Notes: generated by a model from the sequence alone, not told the origin. DNA of 64,000 nt from an uncultured Gemmatimonadaceae bacterium (GCA_963761305.1 CAVXGK010000001.1:1408001-1472000); one strand, 5' to 3'. Shown: positions 19,311-28,120, counted from the first letter of the stretch. Numbers and translations are program-made.

Positions 19311-19368
19311 ACCGCGCTGTCGAAGCGTTGGCGTGGCACGCGCGGATCGAGCGGTTCGCCCGAATGGT

Positions 19369-19413
19369 CAACAATCTTGGCCAACGACAGAATTCTTGGA
19401 TCAAGATTCTTGT
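19369..19413 (+). promoter_or_regulatory. Three repeated sites CA(A/G)-N5-TTG, probable upstream activator sequences
   Basis: CAACAATCTTGG (19369), CAGAATTCTTGG (19388), CAAGATTCTTGT (19402); AT-rich island about 70-110 bp upstream of a -24/-12 promoter. Confidence 0.6.
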
Positions 19414-19478
19414 CTTCGCACCCGTCAATCTGACACCTGATTTCTCGTAAGACGTTGTGCTGGAGCGACTTGGCTGGG

Positions 19479-19494
19479 CGGCACGAACGCTGCT
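19479..19494 (+). promoter_or_regulatory. Sigma54 (-24/-12) promoter
   Basis: CGGCACGAACGCTGCT: GG(19480-81)-N10-GC(19492-93), close to consensus TGGCACG-N4-TTGCW; a sigma54 activator gene lies in the downstream cluster. Confidence 0.75.
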
Positions 19495-19563
19495 ATAGGG
19501 GACGCCGGCCGGACCCCTCCCGGCCGCAGTTTCCAACCCGTTCCGCGAGCCCAGGGCCTCCCC

Positions 19564-20154
19564 ATGCGTCGTCGCATTCTTCTCATCGCCAGCGCTTTCG
19601 TCACGGCCATCGCCGCCGCGTGCGTCTCGAGCGATTCACCCGTTTCCCCACCGAGCGCCCCGGCTCAACCGGCTGCGTCGAACGCGAATCTCGCCAACCT
19701 CCTCGGGCTCGGCGGGTCGACCATCGTTACGCCGTTGCTCCGCGCGAAGCCGCTCGAACAATCTCTCTCGGCGTCGGCGACGATCGGCCCGCTCGGTGGA
19801 ACGCTGGCCATCCCGGGGGCGGGCGTACTCGTGGTCGTCCCGCCGTTGGCGGTGTCGTCCGCGCAGAAGATCACCGTCACCGCCGTCGCGGGATCGAACG
19901 TCGCGTACGAGTTCGCGCCGCACGGCCTCAAGTTCAACCTGCCGCTCGTGGTGACGCAGGACCTCTCCGCCACGCAGGCGCGCAAGGAAGGGTTGGTGAG
20001 CCCGCTGTCGCTCTTCGCGGGATACTATCCCGATTCGACGAAGATCACGTCGATCACCGAGATACTGAACGTCAACGTCAACCTGTTGAACCAGGCGGCG
20101 GTGTTCTCGGTGTGGCACTTCTCGGGTTACATCCTGGCGGACGGCCGAGACTAG
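19564..20154 (+). CDS. Lipoprotein with ZU5-like domain and C-terminal HFS motif
   Basis: Lipoprotein signal ending AAAC20; IGPLGGTLAIPGAGVLVVVPP, EFAPHGLKFNLPL, WHFSGY. Confidence 0.75.
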   Translation: MRRRILLIASAFVTAIAAACVSSDSPVSPPSAPAQPAASNANLANLLGLGGSTIVTPLLRAKPLEQSLSASATIGPLGGTLAIPGAGVLVVVPPLAVSSAQKITVTAVAGSNVAYEFAPHGLKFNLPLVVTQDLSATQARKEGLVSPLSLFAGYYPDSTKITSITEILNVNVNLLNQAAVFSVWHFSGYILADGRD

Positions 20155-20178
20155 CAGTCGCCGAGGTGTCTTCCGGCC

Positions 20179-21237
20179 ATGAACCTCGAGCCGATACGTG
20201 GATATGCCGGACAGGCAGCTGAAGAAGCGCGGCGCCTCAGTGAGCTGGCGCGCGCCGCCGGACTCGGTGACTCACCGGACGACGCTGTTCGGTGGCACCG
20301 AGACGCGCTGTCGCTGCTCGGTGCGAGCGAACCGACCACGCTCGTCGCCGACGTGCTGCGTTGGCAAGGGACCGTCCTTCGCGATCGCGGACTTCCTGGC
20401 GAGGCCAATCCTCTCTATCACCGAAGTCTCACACTGTCGCGCGAGCTGGGTTACCAGAGCGGGATCGCCCACGCGCTGAACTGCCTGGGGATCCTCTCGC
20501 TCAACGCCGGCGACCTGGCCGGCGCCGGCGATCTGTTCAGCCAGGCGCTCACGGCTACCGAGTCGTGCGGCGAGCCACGGCTCGTCGGCATGATTCAGCA
20601 GAACCTCGGCGTGATGGCCGACATTCGCGGGAATCCCGCATCCGCGATGGCGCACTATCGCGTCGCGCTGCGAACCTTCGAGGCGGCGAACGACCGCCAG
20701 CAGGTGTGCCGGGTCTTGAACAACCTCGGCATCGCCTACGCCAAGGCCGGGCGCCACGCCGAGGCGCGCGACGCGTACGCCCGCGCGCTCGACATCGCGA
20801 AGGACCGAGGCGAGCTGCTCTTCGAAGGCATCATCGAGGGGAACGTCGCCGAGTTGGAATTGATGTGCGGACACGTGGCCGCGGCACGTCCGTCGATCGA
20901 GCGGGCGCTCGAGATCGCCGAGCGCCGCGGTGACAATGCGCGACGCGCGATCGCGCTCAAGCTCCTCGGCGCGTGTCAGCGAATGACCGGCGACGTGCCG
21001 GCCGCCGAGGAGACGTTGGGCAGGGCCGCGCGGCTCGCCGTCGTGGCCGGGGACGCGTTGACGAGCGCTGAAATCCGCTTCCAACTCGCCTGCGCGCTGG
21101 CGGCGGGCGGCCGCCGAACAAGTGCCGAAGAGACCTGGACCCGCTCGTTGCTCGCTTTTGAGCGGATAGGTGCCCGCCGGTGGGCAGCCAGGGTGAGAGC
21201 GCGATTAACCGCCGGGGAGAACGGACGATACTTCTAG
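20179..21237 (+). CDS. Stand-alone tetratricopeptide repeat protein
   Basis: About 40-aa repeats: ALNCLG, QQNLGV, LNNLGI, EGNVAE; no signal peptide. Confidence 0.88.
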   Translation: MNLEPIRGYAGQAAEEARRLSELARAAGLGDSPDDAVRWHRDALSLLGASEPTTLVADVLRWQGTVLRDRGLPGEANPLYHRSLTLSRELGYQSGIAHALNCLGILSLNAGDLAGAGDLFSQALTATESCGEPRLVGMIQQNLGVMADIRGNPASAMAHYRVALRTFEAANDRQQVCRVLNNLGIAYAKAGRHAEARDAYARALDIAKDRGELLFEGIIEGNVAELELMCGHVAAARPSIERALEIAERRGDNARRAIALKLLGACQRMTGDVPAAEETLGRAARLAVVAGDALTSAEIRFQLACALAAGGRRTSAEETWTRSLLAFERIGARRWAARVRARLTAGENGRYF

Positions 21238-21282
21238 GCGCGGGGACTCGCCCGCTAAGCCTAACTCCCAAAGAGGTTTCGG

Positions 21283-22308
21283 TTGCTTCACGACGAGGAT
21301 CGCTCGGCTGAGCCGTCGGACCGCGCACGCGATTTCGGGTTTCAGAACATCGTGGGTTCCAGCCCGCTGCTGCGCGAAGCTGTCAGCCTCGCGATGCAGG
21401 TGGCGGGGACTCGGCGCACGACCGTTCTGCTGATCGGCGAAACCGGAACGGGCAAGGAGTTGTTCGCCCGCGGCATCCACTACGCCGGTACGGCGGCCGA
21501 CGAGCCCTTCGTCGCCATCAACTGCGCGGCGATTCCCGAGGCGCTGCTCGAGTCCGAGTTGTTCGGCCACGAACGCGGCGCGTTTACGGGCGCGCACGCG
21601 CGCAAGCAAGGGCTCCTCGAGCTCGCCGGATCGGGCACGCTCTTTCTCGATGAAGTGCATCACCTGCCGCGAATGCTGCAGCCCAAGCTCCTGCGCGCGC
21701 TGGAATCGCGCCAGGTCAGACGCCTCGGGGGCTTCGAGGAGATCGCGATCAACTGCCGCATCGTCGCCGCGGCGAGCCCGCTTCTCGAGCAGGTGGTCGG
21801 CAGCGGAGAGTTTCGCGAAGACCTCTACTACCGGCTCAACGTCTTCGGCATCACCCTGCCCGCGCTGCGCGACCGTCTCGAGGACATCGAGGTGATCGCG
21901 CGCCATTTTCTCGCGCACGAAACGCGCGAGCACGGAAAGTCCAAGGCGTTCTCGTCGGACGCGTGCACTGCGCTTCGCGTGCACCGCTGGCCGGGCAACG
22001 TGCGCGAGCTGAAGAACGTCGTCGAGCGTGCGGCGATCCTGAGCGGTGATTCCTCGATCGTCCGCGCCGAACACCTGATGATCCAACGCCGCGCCGCTCG
22101 GCAGGCCGCGCCGGACGCGGTCGGCGAGATTCGGATTCCGACGACGGGCAAGCTGCTGGAAGAGATCGTGGCCGAGGCGGTGGCGCTCACGCTCAAAATC
22201 ACCAACGGGAATCAGGCGGCGGCGGCACGGCTGCTTGGCATCTCGCGGCCGACGCTCGCGAAGAAGATGACTCGGCCCGCCGATCCCTCTCGAGTGTCGG
22301 TGGCGTGA
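21283..22308 (+). CDS. Sigma54-dependent transcriptional activator lacking N-terminal regulatory domain
   Basis: GETGTGKE, ESELFGHERGAFTGA, LFLDEV, FREDLYYRL, WPGNVREL, Fis-type HTH NQAAAARLLGISRPTL; GAGG SD before TTG. Confidence 0.93.
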   Translation: MLHDEDRSAEPSDRARDFGFQNIVGSSPLLREAVSLAMQVAGTRRTTVLLIGETGTGKELFARGIHYAGTAADEPFVAINCAAIPEALLESELFGHERGAFTGAHARKQGLLELAGSGTLFLDEVHHLPRMLQPKLLRALESRQVRRLGGFEEIAINCRIVAAASPLLEQVVGSGEFREDLYYRLNVFGITLPALRDRLEDIEVIARHFLAHETREHGKSKAFSSDACTALRVHRWPGNVRELKNVVERAAILSGDSSIVRAEHLMIQRRAARQAAPDAVGEIRIPTTGKLLEEIVAEAVALTLKITNGNQAAAARLLGISRPTLAKKMTRPADPSRVSVA

Positions 22309-23966
22309 TCGCAGGGAACGGCGTCCCCTCCCTCACCGGCGCGGCGTCGTATCTCGTCGCCGAAGCCGAAGCGGCCGAGCGCGCCGGGCAGCGCGAGCTC
22401 GCGCGGCGGCAGTACGAGCGTGCGTTGCGGCTCCTTCGCGAGAGCAGCGCCGCGTCGACCATACTCCGCCGTATCGCGCGTTCGTATCGCGAAGACGGCC
22501 AGCTGGACGTGGCACTCGATTGTCTCGATGCCGCTCTCGGCTCGGCCGAGGCGCACGGCGCGATGTCCGACATCGCGCATGCCAAGAACCTGGCTGGAAA
22601 CATCCTGCTGACGCGCGGCGACTACGCGGCGGCCGAACCGATGTACGCACGCGCCCTGTCACTCGCCGTCGAGTCGGGCGAGCGCCAGCTCGAGGCGATG
22701 ATCGCGCAGAACCTCGGCGTCATCGCCAGCATGCGCGGCGACCGGCTGACAGCGCTCGAGCATTACGCGTCCGGGCTGGTCGTGTATCGCACGCTCGGGA
22801 TGTTCCGGCAGGTCGGCCACGCGCTCAACAACATGGCGCTCGAGTACACGTCCCTGGGACGGCTCGACGAAGCGCAGGCGGCATACGACGAGGCGATCGT
22901 GCATTGCGCCGCGGCGGGCGACGTGCCCAACCGATTGCTCGCGCAGACCAACGCGGCGCATCTGCGCCTGGTTCGCGGCGACGTCGCCGGCGCCGAGACG
23001 ATCTGTCGCTCAGTGCTGGCCGAAGCCACCGACGCGGGCGACGAGCGCGCACTCGGCGAAACGCTCAAGCACATGGGCGTCATCGCCCGGTCGCGCCGCG
23101 AGTACGACGCCGCCGAACGGCATCTCCGCGACGCGTTCGACAGCGCGATGCGGCGCGAGGATCTGCTGCTCGCCGGCGAGACGGCGCGCGAGCAGGCCGA
23201 CTTGTTCGAACGGATGGATAAGAGCCGGGAGACGTTGCAGGCGCTCACGCAGTCCCACCGGTTGTTCACCAAACTCCAATCACAGCGCAACCTCGCCGAT
23301 CTCCAGCAGCGCGTCGCGCGGCTCGAGGAGCGGTTCTACTTCGTCGTCGCGCGGTGGGCCGGATCGATCGAGTCGAAGGACGCGTACACGCTCGGCCACT
23401 GCGAGCGCGTCGCCGACTACGCGTGCGCGCTGGCTCGCGACATCGGCTTCGACGAGATGACGTTGTTCTGGTTCCGCATCGGCGCGCTGCTGCACGACGT
23501 CGGCAAGATCGTGGTGCCGACGGAGATCCTGAACAAGCCCGGGCGGTTGACGCCGGAAGAACGCTTGGTGATGGAACGGCACCCCGCGGCCGGCTCGGAG
23601 ATGTTGGCGGACATCGATTTTCCGTGGGACATCCTGCCGATCGTCCGCAACCATCACGAGCGATGGGACGGCGACGGGTATCCCGACCGCCTGGCGGGCG
23701 AAGGGATTCCGCTCGCGGCGCGGGTCGTCTGCGTGGCGGACGTGTTCGATGCCCTCACGACCGACCGGCCTTACCGAAAAGGATTCTCGCGGCGCGACGC
23801 GTTGGCGACGATGAACAACGATCGCGGAAAGATCTTCGATCCGTACTTGTTGGCGCGGTTCAACCGCATCATCGAGGAGACGCCCGCTACTTCTCGCCGG
23901 CGCCCACGTCGTGGATCGTACGGAGCTCGACGACGCGGAGCTGACGCACCATCGTCGGCAGCCTGA
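22305..23966 (+). CDS. TPR + HD-GYP cyclic dinucleotide phosphodiesterase
   Basis: N-terminal TPRs; YTLGHCERV, LLHDVGK, HHERWDGDGYP, ADVFDALTTDRPYR; GTGA overlap with activator gene. Confidence 0.92.
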   Translation: MIAGNGVPSLTGAASYLVAEAEAAERAGQRELARRQYERALRLLRESSAASTILRRIARSYREDGQLDVALDCLDAALGSAEAHGAMSDIAHAKNLAGNILLTRGDYAAAEPMYARALSLAVESGERQLEAMIAQNLGVIASMRGDRLTALEHYASGLVVYRTLGMFRQVGHALNNMALEYTSLGRLDEAQAAYDEAIVHCAAAGDVPNRLLAQTNAAHLRLVRGDVAGAETICRSVLAEATDAGDERALGETLKHMGVIARSRREYDAAERHLRDAFDSAMRREDLLLAGETAREQADLFERMDKSRETLQALTQSHRLFTKLQSQRNLADLQQRVARLEERFYFVVARWAGSIESKDAYTLGHCERVADYACALARDIGFDEMTLFWFRIGALLHDVGKIVVPTEILNKPGRLTPEERLVMERHPAAGSEMLADIDFPWDILPIVRNHHERWDGDGYPDRLAGEGIPLAARVVCVADVFDALTTDRPYRKGFSRRDALATMNNDRGKIFDPYLLARFNRIIEETPATSRRRPRRGSYGARRRGADAPSSAA

Positions 23967-24452: not shown

Positions 24453-25676
24453 TTACCCCGCGTGCGCGCCGCTGGCAAACGAGGAATCGGATGCCCGGGC
24501 GAACTCGGCGCGCAAACGTTCCATCATGGCGTCGCGGCGGTCGTACAGACGCTTGAGCGGCCGCGCCGCGTGGCGTGCCTTCGCGTACGACGTGAGCAAC
24601 GGCAGCGCGACCGTCGAATCCATGTAGCACACGACCGCGTCGGGCAGCCGGTCGGGATCGATCTTGCCCCAGCTCACCGCCTCGGCGGGCGTGGCGCCCG
24701 AGAGCCCGCCGGTGTCCGGCCGCGCGTCGGTGATCTGCAGAAAGTAGTCGTGCCCCTTCTCGTCGATGCCGAGCACTTCCTGAATCTGCGGCTCGGTCTG
24801 GAGCATGAAGTTCTTCGGGCTGCCACCGCCGCAGATCAGCACGGCCGACTTGCCGCCCGAGCGCTTCGCGTCGAGCACGATCGACGCCGTCTCGTTCACG
24901 TCGAGGTTCGGATCGATCGTGCACTTGTTGCCCTCGAGCGCCAGCGCGGCGACGTTCATCCCGATCGACGAGTCGCCGGGCGACGACGTGTAGATCGGTA
25001 CGCCGGCATTGTACGCCGCCGAGATGAGCGACTTCTGTCCGATGCCGAGGGCGCGTTCGCGCTCGCGCACGTACTTGCCGCAGAGGTTGTGGAACTCGGC
25101 GCTCGACATCGAACGCTGGAATTCCGGGCCTTGAATGACGGTCCGGAAAAAGGCGTCGGTCGACAGCAGGACGTCATAGTCAAAAAAGATGTCGTAGATC
25201 CGCACGACGCCTTCGTCGCGCAGGACGACGTCGGACTCTTGCGGATTCCCGCGGTGCATCGCCAGCCCGAGCCCGAAGTGCGTGTCGTGGTAGAGATTCG
25301 CGCCGGTGGAGATGATCCAGTCGACGAACCCGGCCTCGATGAGCGGAATGAGCGCCGCCATGCCGAGGCCCGCGGGCGTGAGGGCGCCGGTGAGCGTCAT
25401 GCCGACGGTCACGTCGGGCTCCAGCATTTTCTTGGTGTACAGTCCACAGGCTTCACGAAGACGCGCCGCGTTGTAGGCGAGGAACGCGTTGTCGATCAGA
25501 TCGGCCGCCGTCTCGGCGCCGCTGATCGGCGTCGGTTCGATGCGCGGCCCGCGAAGGAACTTGCTGGTCTCGCGGGCGTCGTGCCGCGTGCCGCTTCGCT
25601 CGCGTTCCTCGGCGGCGGCCTTCTGCGCGCCCTTCGGGCCCGCGGCCGATGGTTTGTTGTCGGAACGCTTCGCCAT
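24453..25676 (-). CDS. Deoxyhypusine synthase-like protein (probable homospermidine synthase)
   Basis: [35 protein letters not shown] (catalytic Lys). Confidence 0.9.
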
Positions 25677-25677
25677 G

Positions 25678-26622
25678 TCAGCGTCCGTTCTGCGCTTCCC
25701 ACGCCTGAATCACGGCGTGGGCGGCTTCTTGCGGGTCGTCCGTGAGCAAAATCAAATCCAGGTCTCCCGGTGAGATCTTCGATTCGCCGAGCACGCGAGA
25801 CTGAATCCAGCGGATCAGTCCCGCCCAGTAGTGCCGGCCGAACATCACGACGGGGAATTGATAGATCTTGCCCGTCTGGATGAGCGTGAGCGCTTCGAAG
25901 GCTTCGTCGAGCGTGCCGTAGCCGCCCGGAAATATGATGAACGCGTTCGAGTACTTGATGAACATCGTCTTCCGGACGAAGAAGTAGCGGAAGTTGATGA
26001 GCGTATCGAGATAGGGGTTGGCGCCCTGCTCGAACGGGAGCTCGATGTTGCAGCCGATCGACGTGCCGCCGCCCATCTTGGCGCCTTTGTTCGCCGCCTC
26101 CATGATCCCCGGCCCCGCGCCGGTGATGATGGCGAATCCGGCCTCGGCCAGGAGACGCGCGACCTCCTGCGCCGACTGATACTGCGGATCGTCGGGGTGC
26201 GTGCGCGCCGAGCCGAAGATCGCCACACCCTTCTGCACGTGCGCGAGGTTGTCGAACCCGTCGACGAACTCGCCCATGATGCGCATCACGCGCCAGGGAT
26301 CCGTGCGCGTGAAATCCTCGCGACTGCTCCCGGATTGCAGCAGCTTTTCGTCTTCGGTGACGGGCGGCATGTAGCTGCGAATCGCGTCGTCGACGATCCG
26401 CGGCGGCGTGGTCGGACCACCCGGCGCTCGCTCCGACGGCGGCGTGCGTCCCGCTGCTCGGTGGCCGGCTTCCGTCCGTTCGCGGTACCCTTCCTGCGCC
26501 CCTCTCGATGCTTCGGCGAGAAGTTCCGGGCTCGTCTTGTTGCCGCCAGCCGTCCGGGGTGACTTGGGCTTCGTGGGGCGCTGAGCCTTCGCTTTCGTCT
26601 CGCGTGGTTTGCGGTCTGGCAT
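25678..26622 (-). CDS. LOG family protein (TIGR00730-like Rossmann fold)
   Basis: [33 protein letters not shown]; start ATG 26622. Confidence 0.9.
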
Positions 26623-26698
26623 GGCGTTGATCTTATGGGGTTGAGGGAGGAGTGCACAGAGGCGAGCTTTGCGACACAGCCTCCCCTTCATCGCCGCA

Positions 26699-28120
26699 GT
26701 GTCCGTAGTCATCCTCCTCGCCGACGGCGCGCGCCCCGACACACTGTCGACCGCGCTCGACTCCGGTGCGCTGCCGGCGCTCGCGCGCCTGCGCGCGGCG
26801 GGGGGCCTGCACACGATCACGTCGTGCTTTCCCTCGGTCACCGGACCGGCCTACGCGCCGTTTCTCCTGGGCCGCTTCCCCGGACCGGTCGGCCTGCCGG
26901 GGCTGCGTTGGTTCGACCGCGCGCGCACGGCGTGCAGTTTTCCCGACTACTCGCGGAGCTACGTCGGCTATCAGATGAGCGCGGTGGACGGCGATCTCGA
27001 CGCGTCCGCGCCGACGATCTTCGAGCTCACCGGCACGAGTCTCGGCGCGCTCAGCGTGATCACGCGGGGGCTGCCGTCCCACCAACGCATCGGGTCGATC
27101 ACGACGCTCTCGGCGATTCGCGGCGCACGCACTCACTTCTCCGGCGACCTCGCCGGCTGGCTCGAGATCGACCGCATCGCCGCGGGTCAGCTCGTGCGGC
27201 GGATTCGGATGGAGCAGCCGGATTTCGTGTTCGCCGCACTGACCGGCGTCGACAAGGTGTCGCACGCGCGCGGTCAGGACTCGCCGATGACGATCGACGC
27301 ACTGCGCATCGTGGACGACACCGCGGCGCGGATCCGCGACGACGCCGAGCGCAGCGGACGCTGGGACGACATGCACCTGTGGATCGTGAGCGATCACGGT
27401 CACTCGCGTGTGACCTCGCACGAAGACCTTGCCGGCCTGATCGACGACACGGGCCTCCGCACCATGTCACACCCGTGGGTCGTGACGCTCGGCGCGGAGG
27501 TGGCGGTGATGGTGAGCGGCAACGCGATGGCGCATCTGTATTGCGACGTTCGGTCGCGCGCGCGTCCGTCGATGGATGCCCCGAGGTGGCGCGCACTGTG
27601 CGACATGCTGCTCACACGCCCGTCGGTGGATCTGCTCGCCGTGTGCCGCGGCGAGCGGGTGGTCGTTCGGACTGCCGATCGCGGCGACGCCGTCCTGTGG
27701 CGGACGAATCGAGGATACCACTATCAGCGTGAGGGCGGCGACCCGCTCGGCATCGGCCGCGACGTGTGCGCGGTGACGAGCGACGAAGCGTACGATCTCA
27801 CGATCGACACCGACTATCCGGATTCGATCGTGCAGCTGGTGAACCTCGTCTGCTCGCCGAGGTCCGGCGAGATCGTGCTGTCCGCGGCGCGCGACTGGGA
27901 TTTCCGCGCGCGCTACGAGCCGATCCGCCACGTGAGCTCGCACGGCGCGCTGCACCGCGAGCACATGCTCGTTCCGCTGCTGACGAATCGCCCGGTCGCG
28001 TCGGCGCCCCGTCGCACGGTCGACGTCATGCCGAGCGCACTCGCGGCGCTCGGCGCGCCGATGCCGGCGATGTTGGATGGCCGCTCGTTTCTTGCGCCGC
28101 GCGAGGCGTTCGTCACGTGA
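26699..28120 (+). CDS. Alkaline phosphatase superfamily protein (nucleotide pyrophosphatase/phosphodiesterase type)
   Basis: LLADGAR, FPSVTGP (Thr nucleophile), DKVSH, SDHG, SHG; start approximate. Confidence 0.85.
   Translation: MSVVILLADGARPDTLSTALDSGALPALARLRAAGGLHTITSCFPSVTGPAYAPFLLGRFPGPVGLPGLRWFDRARTACSFPDYSRSYVGYQMSAVDGDLDASAPTIFELTGTSLGALSVITRGLPSHQRIGSITTLSAIRGARTHFSGDLAGWLEIDRIAAGQLVRRIRMEQPDFVFAALTGVDKVSHARGQDSPMTIDALRIVDDTAARIRDDAERSGRWDDMHLWIVSDHGHSRVTSHEDLAGLIDDTGLRTMSHPWVVTLGAEVAVMVSGNAMAHLYCDVRSRARPSMDAPRWRALCDMLLTRPSVDLLAVCRGERVVVRTADRGDAVLWRTNRGYHYQREGGDPLGIGRDVCAVTSDEAYDLTIDTDYPDSIVQLVNLVCSPRSGEIVLSAARDWDFRARYEPIRHVSSHGALHREHMLVPLLTNRPVASAPRRTVDVMPSALAALGAPMPAMLDGRSFLAPREAFVT

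Follow-up and report, generated by a model that had tools for sequence, protein, structure and literature searches.

A ZU5-fold lipoprotein with TPR partners in Gemmatimonadaceae: a candidate caged-peptide signalling unit

Could the last strand of an exported lipoprotein be a peptide signal that the same cell, or a neighbour, reads in its cytoplasm? The question is raised by four genes at positions 19369..23966 of a stretch of 64,000 nt (hereafter the window) from an uncultured Gemmatimonadaceae bacterium (GCA_963761305.1 CAVXGK010000001.1:1408001-1472000). They encode, in this order, a lipoprotein with a predicted ZU5 fold, a standalone tetratricopeptide repeat (TPR) protein, a sigma54 activator, and a TPR protein ending in an HD-GYP domain. 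A sequence-only reading of the window had proposed that the lipoprotein cuts itself at an HFS motif and that the TPR proteins read the product. A caged-peptide signalling unit of this kind is the best reading we can offer from the sequences, and we give it an even chance. It is built on the coupling of the lipoprotein gene to TPR genes and on the co-evolution of the tail that follows the HFS motif.

The lipoprotein and its coupling to TPR genes

The four open reading frames (ORFs) are co-oriented and closely spaced exactly as had been described, with intergenic gaps of 24, 45, and -4 bp in gene order. Pfam assigns TPR_12 to the standalone TPR protein, Sigma54_activat and HTH_8 to the activator, and TPR_12 and HD_5 to the fourth protein; in the NCBIfam scan no curated full-length-family cut-off was reached by the proteins of the unit, the HDIG domain excepted, and nothing useful was obtained for the lipoprotein family. 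The first protein is the only one of the four with a hydrophobic N-terminus, and its basic-hydrophobic leader, together with a Cys20 invariant among 108 homologues, indicates a lipoprotein signal. H185, F186, S187, and Y189 are invariant in the same homologues. The AlphaFold2 model (mean predicted local distance difference test, pLDDT, 85.5) shows a beta-sandwich from residue 51, with values mostly above 90 in this block, and places F186-S187 in the turn joining strands 178-185 and 188-195. Its best fold match is the ZU5 domain of ankyrin (Z 12.3, root-mean-square deviation 2.2, 116 residues aligned), followed by UNC5b (9.0), GAIN (6-7.7), CARD8/NLRP1 (5-6.2, with CARD8 at 6.2), and Nup98 (4.7); Foldseek gives E 5e-6 for the ZU5 fold, and the Pfam ZU5 model matches this protein at 24.4 bits (cut-off 21) and 19/32 members of the family. 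The ZU5 identity proposed from sequence is therefore upheld by the model, which also puts HFS where MAIN and GAIN domains cut. In MAIN domains the cut falls between F and S of an HFS motif in a beta-turn, and the main text of the preprint describes products that stay associated (Brogan and Rudner, bioRxiv 10.64898/2026.05.12.724683). By analogy, the ZU5 domain of the lipoprotein very probably cuts itself between HF and S. The motif had been placed 10 aa from the C-terminus; it is indeed near-terminal, and ten is the number of residues after the HF-S junction. Most family members carry only 7 to ~20 residues after this site, 73 of them exactly seven. The genome holds a single copy of the family. 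Elsewhere, the precursors of loci L041-L044 consist of two domains with an HFS motif at the end of each, and could yield two peptides per protein, and the lipoprotein of L079 ends in a 7-residue tail tandemly duplicated at the DNA level (SRYVIAF, then SDYVIAW).

The lipoprotein is common: a profile of 32 sequences matches 63/121 genomes of the phylum and 99/151 of those searched in the family, tallies that include three unpublished genomes (G087, G205, G206) excluded from the coupling, promoter, and co-evolution counts given below. At E 0.001 the profile retrieves 13,613 representative sequences, unassigned to named taxa, and a scan of named genomes with one distant member returned 6 loci, which gives no usable view outside the phylum. 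Within the genus, the lipoprotein occurs in 22/24 other genomes. When the best locus from each of 20 genomes is compared, the genes of the lipoprotein, the activator, and the TPR-HD-GYP protein follow each other in this order, and then greA, in 20/20 loci; the standalone TPR gene is intact in 15, fragmented in L024, and absent from L028, L034, L035, and L037. The co-occurrence in other genomes on which the sequence-only reading depended thus holds for three of the genes throughout, and for the standalone TPR with these exceptions. All four genes are also present in a 21st locus (L060), L038 carries a tandem lipoprotein-TPR duplication, L033 a duplicated TPR-HD-GYP gene, and three loci have frameshifts that may be assembly errors. 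Among the loci examined, the order lipoprotein-(TPR)-activator is found in 9 genera of the family.

The association with TPR genes extends beyond this arrangement. Our discovery set consisted of loci L021-L130 minus four duplicates, the copy of the genome itself, and L086. It contains 139 ORFs ending in ZU5; once 26 within tandem arrays and 2 at the ends of contigs are set aside, 111 remain to be scored. Within 450 bp downstream, 91 have a TPR gene, 4 an activator and then a TPR-HD-GYP gene, and 16 neither; the coupled loci (95/111) span 61 genomes and 28 genera. The control comprised 20 regions, of which 16 were usable, with an internal ZU5 in a long protein (one had no match, two were at contig edges, and L149 turned out to have its ZU5 at the terminus, followed by a TPR), and a downstream TPR gene was found in 0/16. 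The held-out set comprised 113 loci of 81 additional genomes, which are part of the family-genome matches; there, among the matches listed, 83/116 lipoprotein loci are coupled to a TPR or activator gene, the TPR being directly adjacent in 81/116. The coupling persists in loci that have neither an activator nor a sigma54 site. In L097, L059, L051, and L128, three to six ZU5 lipoprotein genes follow one another in tandem upstream of TPR genes. Several lipoprotein loci also encode all-TPR proteins of 650-820 aa, and activators with an N-terminal region of ~140 aa for which no Pfam match was found in 4/5 tested.

The TPR proteins as candidate readers of the tail

The TPR arrays of the second and fourth proteins are homologous, as had been noticed, with 31% identity over 262 aa and no gap. 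They had been called Asn-rich; what they contain are single Asn residues ~40 aa apart, which form a ladder. In the model of the standalone TPR (pLDDT 94, eight helix pairs and a cap), N101, N142, N182, and N222 occupy the first helix of successive pairs, and R61 is also marked. The first helices of TPR pairs line the concave groove. The ladder is kept in 89-99% of 85 neighbour TPRs. The fold matches of the standalone protein are APPBP2 (Z 29.8), MalT domain III (29.7), Rap (24.8), LGN (23.0), NprR (21.9), AimR (20.3), and PlcR (18.5). At the level of profiles, LGN (E 8e-27) comes before RapJ (6e-12), and the fold ranking puts APPBP2 and MalT above Rap. MalT domain III binds a sugar. Most of these matches are peptide binders, and MalT indicates that a small ligand is possible.

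If the tail is read by something other than its own fold, it should vary under constraints of its own, and a number of results go in this direction. First, paralogues within a genome share a tail dialect: the excess identity of tails reaches z 0.87 in array pairs, the highest value, the best of 97 other windows giving 0.56 (240 domains), and 0.58 in same-genome pairs outside arrays, where the best other window gives 0.26 (240 domains). Second, the tails of same-genome paralogues are more alike than their bodies predict in 45/56 genomes, and their excess surpasses the average over 14 body windows in 43/56 genomes and 29/35 genera. Third, where 7-mers in arrays are identical, 15/16 pairs differ at 2-5 of the 21 nucleotides, which means that the identity does not come from recent conversion. 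According to the paralogue test, the tail has a reader outside the fold, whose nature the test does not reveal. Fourth, in 152 lipoprotein-TPR pairs, tail similarity correlates with the groove columns (partial r 0.17, overall ZU5 and TPR identity removed; 14 control windows, -0.12 to 0.095), and groove positions make up 9 of the 20 top TPR columns, with 3.4 expected. This correlation points modestly to the TPR groove as the reader of the tail. Co-variation between the tail and the groove had been proposed as a check, and it appears for the groove columns taken together, but not as a rule on single residues. The candidate rule, by which 7-residue tails go with a basic residue at column 132 of the TPR, ranked first in the discovery set (82/84 pairs) and was rejected in the held-out set (60/77), where it tied with other columns. 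Neither raw mutual information between tail and TPR nor a pairing of charges with tail position 2 gave a clear signal. Taking the sequences as a whole, we lean towards the tail being the TPR ligand.

Several points weigh against this reading, and they concern each of its parts. For cleavage, ankyrin and UNC5b ZU5 domains are not known to cut themselves, so that the top fold matches in the modelled structure make the fold alone no proof of a cut. For release, the tail is an integral strand of the beta-sandwich in the AlphaFold2 model, and since it is structural, its release needs unfolding or proteolysis; its length and its S-x-Y pattern may be explained by the fold alone, and the products of MAIN cleavage, as the main text of that preprint has it, stay together. 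For recognition, the column-132 rule shows only 2 changes on the tree and lacks significance in independent pairs (p 0.125-1), the tail's correlation with the TPR as a whole (0.23) is within the controls (up to 0.26), and the groove set was derived from helical offsets and picked after column 132 had been seen. Pairs and genomes are also kin, which inflates both co-evolution signals and makes their p-values overstate the effect. MalT domain III fits the standalone TPR as well as the peptide receptors do. As to the genes, no TPR lies directly downstream in 16/111 and, in the held-out set, 33/116 lipoprotein loci, which is to say that orphan lipoproteins are common. The standalone TPR is absent from 4/20 genus loci with no drop in activator identity; given that the activator persists without it, both outputs may depend on the fused TPR, or the activator may have another input altogether.

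These points can be gathered into a different account, in which the lipoprotein is only an output, an envelope protein that the operon turns on: the tail would never leave the fold and would be a sorting or protease signal, the TPRs would sense a small molecule or another protein, and adjacency would reflect shared inheritance. The structural strand, the MalT match, the failed single-column rule, and the existence of orphan lipoproteins, two of them (the second copy in L034 and the one in L046) behind the same sigma54 site and palindromes as the unit, all suit it. It has more difficulty with a coupling that holds over 28 genera in the absence of activator and sigma54 site, with a tail whose link to groove positions is stronger than that of 14 body windows, and with H, F, and S being invariant in 108 homologues even though the tail is the sole part that could be released. 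We regard this account as unlikely.

The caged-peptide reading also needs a way into the cell. The genome encodes PTR2 transporters and three family-5 binding proteins, next to which permease-like ORFs were recognised by eye. The four-gene unit itself contains no transporter gene, and over the loci family-5 binding proteins lie next to 3 of the 82 neighbouring ORFs scanned, with no transporter gene as a constant neighbour. The family-5 (oligopeptide-type) genes near lipoprotein loci are those of L095, L107, and L112, in three genera, a raw count given with no background rate. An export or envelope monitor would dispense with import: the TPRs would see the tail, cut or uncut, of a precursor kept in the cytoplasm by a stall in export or lipidation, and would adjust c-di-GMP and transcription of the operon. 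Such a monitor accounts equally well for the coupling and the groove signal, makes release and uptake unnecessary, and agrees with the lack of a constant transporter neighbour. On the other hand, up to six lipoprotein genes in an array, and precursors with two HFS motifs, have the look of signal dosage or signal diversity, and a dialect shared genome-wide would fit kin recognition; we find the monitor improbable.

Gemmatimonadota are a diderm phylum. The caged-peptide mechanism would in its full form comprise 1) export and lipid anchoring of the lipoprotein, as its sequence suggests; 2) self-cleavage of ZU5 at the HFS motif, as MAIN and GAIN work suggests, the 10-residue tail staying bound as the last strand; 3) freeing of the tail by unfolding or proteolysis in the envelope of the cell itself or of a neighbour, and import by an oligopeptide transporter; 4) binding of the tail in extended form along the Asn ladder of the TPR proteins, the step to which gene coupling and co-evolution would speak; 5) a change in c-di-GMP hydrolysis, up or down, when the tail sits in the fused TPR-HD-GYP protein; 6) control of the activator in trans by one of the TPRs, as happens in PspF-type activators, which is the weakest step; and 7) binding of the sensor-less activator to two palindromes, from which it would drive the sigma54 promoter of its own operon, apparently its only strong target here, and so close a feedback loop.

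Outputs of the unit and genomic context

The transcriptional side of this scheme is well supported at the DNA level (Table 1). A GG-N10-GC element lies 53-112 bases 5' of the start codon in all 21 upstream regions parsed (L038 stands outside the count), and palindromes at 33-bp spacing are found in 18/21, so the -24/-12 promoter and repeated upstream sites that had been reported are both confirmed. Among random windows of 150 bp, 4.6% match a stricter -24/-12 pattern. A sigma70-like promoter was not found in front of the unit, and rpoN is present in the genome. With a matrix trained on 14 loci, from which the window and its five closest relatives had been left out, the promoter of the unit ranks first among 463 candidates in the genome (32.1; the runner-up, with a weak promoter score, reaches 26.3), and its palindromes are the sole strong pair 33 bp apart. 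As to a wider regulon in this genome, no second site has both elements strong; the next ones, C1:1283600 and C2:403561, have weak promoter scores and were inspected only. The promoter with its pair of palindromes co-locates with activators that are 77-94% identical across the genus, and it also stands before two orphan lipoprotein genes within that genus. Where the activator is 51-58% identical, loci mostly have a sigma54-like site and at most one palindrome. From this distribution we are confident that the activator reads the two palindromes, and it would then drive its own operon. A dedicated promoter with candidate activator sites before the lipoprotein gene is what the proposed feedback on this gene calls for on the DNA side, and the locus adds a complete candidate transcription loop of promoter, sites, and activator. 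The two orphan genes (L034:5444-6205 and L046:2991-3656) have the same sigma54 site and palindromes and no TPR neighbour, and are likely further members of the activator's regulon.

The activator lacks an input domain, as had been claimed: the domain scan finds none, and two in-frame stops lie directly upstream of its start. What controls it is the more tentative part. By analogy with other sensor-less activators, control in trans by a TPR is possible, and we stop somewhat short of believing it. A FleQ-type c-di-GMP site on the activator was considered and rejected: at what we take to be the nucleotide-binding motifs of FleQ, comparison with the FleQ-like chain u103197 shows that they are not kept (FRS becomes FQN, RN becomes RG, and ELISR becomes HFLAH). 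The sensor-I region (window 21760-21800) reads AAASP in this clade, genus-wide, and AAT[NH] in most activators, a difference that could affect control of the ATPase. The neighbouring TPR and activator ORFs share a frame and are 45 bp apart, as if they were halves of a split fusion and the unit an ordinary regulator cluster. Three in-frame stops separate them, the genes are distinct in the intact loci of the genus, the TPR gene was lost alone in 4 loci, and the sigma54-activator family is listed in 0/31 longer homologues (a weak piece of evidence); we consider a split fusion highly improbable.

On the side of cyclic di-GMP (c-di-GMP), the HD-GYP domain of the fourth protein is intact, as had been stated, with its metal ligands, GYP, and RxYR kept in 20/20 orthologues. 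RxY[K/R] is given as a mark of c-di-GMP specificity in the main text of bioRxiv 10.1101/2021.11.05.467447. Both c-di-GMP and cyclic GMP-AMP had been suggested as substrates; the conserved RxYR points to the former more than to the latter. The Glu of the PmGH loop (E185; 4MCW) aligns with Tyr361, which suggests the two-metal type, with pGpG as the product, but an invariant Glu356 lies five residues upstream. In L056 and L102, receiver-domain genes lie directly upstream of the lipoprotein gene, and L056 also has a GGDEF gene, a further tie to c-di-GMP.

Table 1. Features of the four-gene unit, in window coordinates.
Feature	Position	Strand	Remarks
Distal palindrome, putative activator site	19367-19381		Family consensus GTAAAAAATTTTTAC; recovered by the left-out matrix
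Possible middle site between the palindromes	19386-19399		By eye, in the window and L021-L025 only
Proximal palindrome, putative activator site	19400-19414		33 bp from the distal one
sigma54 -24/-12 element, GG-N10-GC	19480-19493	+	In 21/21 upstream regions examined
ZU5-fold lipoprotein ORF	19564-20154	+	196 aa; a signal peptide, Cys20 and a linker precede the ZU5 beta-sandwich (residues 51-196)
Tail after the predicted HFS cut, SGYILADGRD	20122-20151	+	Last beta-strand (188-195); candidate signal; cut predicted from MAIN domains
Standalone cytoplasmic TPR ORF	20179-21237	+	352 aa; 8 helix pairs and cap
sigma54 activator ORF, no input domain	21283-22308	+	341 aa, TTG start; AAA+ with intact GAFTGA, Fis-type helix-turn-helix
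TPR-HD-GYP ORF	22305-23966	+	553 aa; TPR ~residues 1-345, HD-GYP ~355-514

The unit had been described as inserted between glpD and greA. Its location between these genes is correct, and a recent horizontal insertion is ruled out by a GC content that is level throughout the unit and by flanks that are kept across the genus: greA is downstream in 20/20 loci and glpD upstream in 18/20, the remaining two being near contig ends. Five loci (L026, L032, L036, L038, L039) have MacB/FtsX-type permease genes between glpD and the promoter. On the minus strand after greA, two genes at 24453-26841 of the window, which we take to be deoxyhypusine-synthase-like and LOG-family, are strongly conserved in the genus. 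A defence system was considered and set aside, the PADLOC matches to the unit being to generic domains only. Outside the window, the same genome encodes at C1:954219-960077 a TPR-HD-GYP-GGDEF-AAA-TPR protein of 1567 aa followed by a sensor-less activator that lacks GAFTGA. No ZU5 lipoprotein gene was found upstream of it; its counterpart in L041-L043 has a two-domain ZU5 lipoprotein gene in that place.

Comparison with known systems

As far as the open-licence literature searched goes, subscription journals being outside it, the lipoprotein-TPR unit is undescribed as a gene system, in line with the earlier statement that no description was known; its function is predicted. The nearest relatives by motif are the MAIN proteins, which share with the lipoprotein the HFS motif and, by prediction, export from a bacterial cell, the cut itself being presumed here. 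The main text of that preprint (bioRxiv 10.64898/2026.05.12.724683) presents surface proteins with a large N-terminal adhesion or enzyme cargo and a C-terminal wall anchor, whereas the lipoprotein has neither: with its 196 aa, an N-terminal lipobox at Cys20, and a stop ten residues past the cut, it is lipid-anchored at the other end, carries no cargo, and could only let go of a short tail. TPR, lipoprotein, Gemmatimonad, ZU5, and HD-GYP find no mention in this main text; the supplementary tables (15,000 proteins) could list such lipoproteins. The fold is shared with the ZU5 superfamily (ankyrin, UNC5, PIDD, the FIIND of NLRP1/CARD8, Nup98). Bacterial ZU5 domains are placed in large polymorphic toxins and surface proteins by the passages of PMC3482391 that deal with them (12 of 16 places), in which no standalone lipoprotein or TPR partner is mentioned. 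In G-protein-coupled receptors (GPCRs) of the adhesion class, the self-cut last strand of GAIN, or Stachel, is a proposed agonist once uncaged, according to the introduction of the MAIN preprint. GAIN structures match the lipoprotein at Z 6-7.7, and in both cases the last strand is the candidate agonist; however, the Stachel is tethered to a membrane receptor, whereas the tail of the lipoprotein would be free and its proposed receptor separate and cytoplasmic. One can go further and see in it a free Stachel that serves Gemmatimonadota as a pheromone or damage signal, a 7-10 residue peptide that a lipid-anchored ZU5 cage would cut and keep until envelope stress or degradation of the protein, imported, read by TPRs in a genome-specific dialect, setting c-di-GMP and, in this family, auto-inducing its sigma54 operon; to this fuller picture we give less credence than to the caged peptide as such. 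The main text of the preprint leaves it open whether microbial GAIN-like domains ever signal through their C-terminal fragment.

For the outputs, the passages of PMC7175178 on group 4 enhancer-binding proteins, which have no regulatory domain, give control in trans by protein binding as the rule. PspF and HrpR/S have in common with our activator an intact GAFTGA, a helix-turn-helix, the missing regulatory domain, and paired upstream sites; the difference is that the unit has no PspA- or HrpV-like gene, the candidate partner being a TPR protein. The fourth protein shares its metal ligands, GYP, and RxY[K/R] with c-di-GMP phosphodiesterases of the HD-GYP type, and is set apart by its TPR input from those in the main text of bioRxiv 10.1101/2021.11.05.467447, where neither TPR nor Gemmatimonad appears.

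By its logic, the unit is closest to the RRNPP systems (Rap-Phr, NprR-NprX, PlcR-PapR, AimR). As listed in the pertinent part of PMC10075063, these are recognised by a propeptide of 10-100 aa, Sec export, and an adjacent TPR receptor of 250-500 aa. Here, too, a precursor with a predicted export signal is encoded beside a cytoplasmic TPR protein of fitting size (352 aa; 553 aa in the fused one), the modelled TPR fold resembles those of Rap, NprR, AimR, and PlcR, and the precursor gene is predicted to be under feedback. The likeness proposed earlier goes thus far, but not to membership by the published definition: the precursor is a folded lipoprotein of 196 aa with its own predicted protease site, the standalone TPR is nearer by sequence to LGN and kinesin light chain than to Rap, and the outputs are an HD-GYP domain and a separate sigma54 activator. 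Cytoplasmic receptors of re-imported peptides are described for Gram-positive Firmicutes in the same part of PMC10075063. The analysis as a whole suggests a unit that works like RRNPP systems with a precursor outside their size range, and that shares fold and motif, and not architecture, with MAIN and GAIN proteins. It directly offers a candidate on two counts, as peptide signalling in a soil phylum with a diderm envelope and as the bacterial equivalent of the agonist that adhesion GPCRs carry tethered; if this is true, an RRNPP-like logic operates in a diderm phylum and was built on the domain family of adhesion GPCRs.

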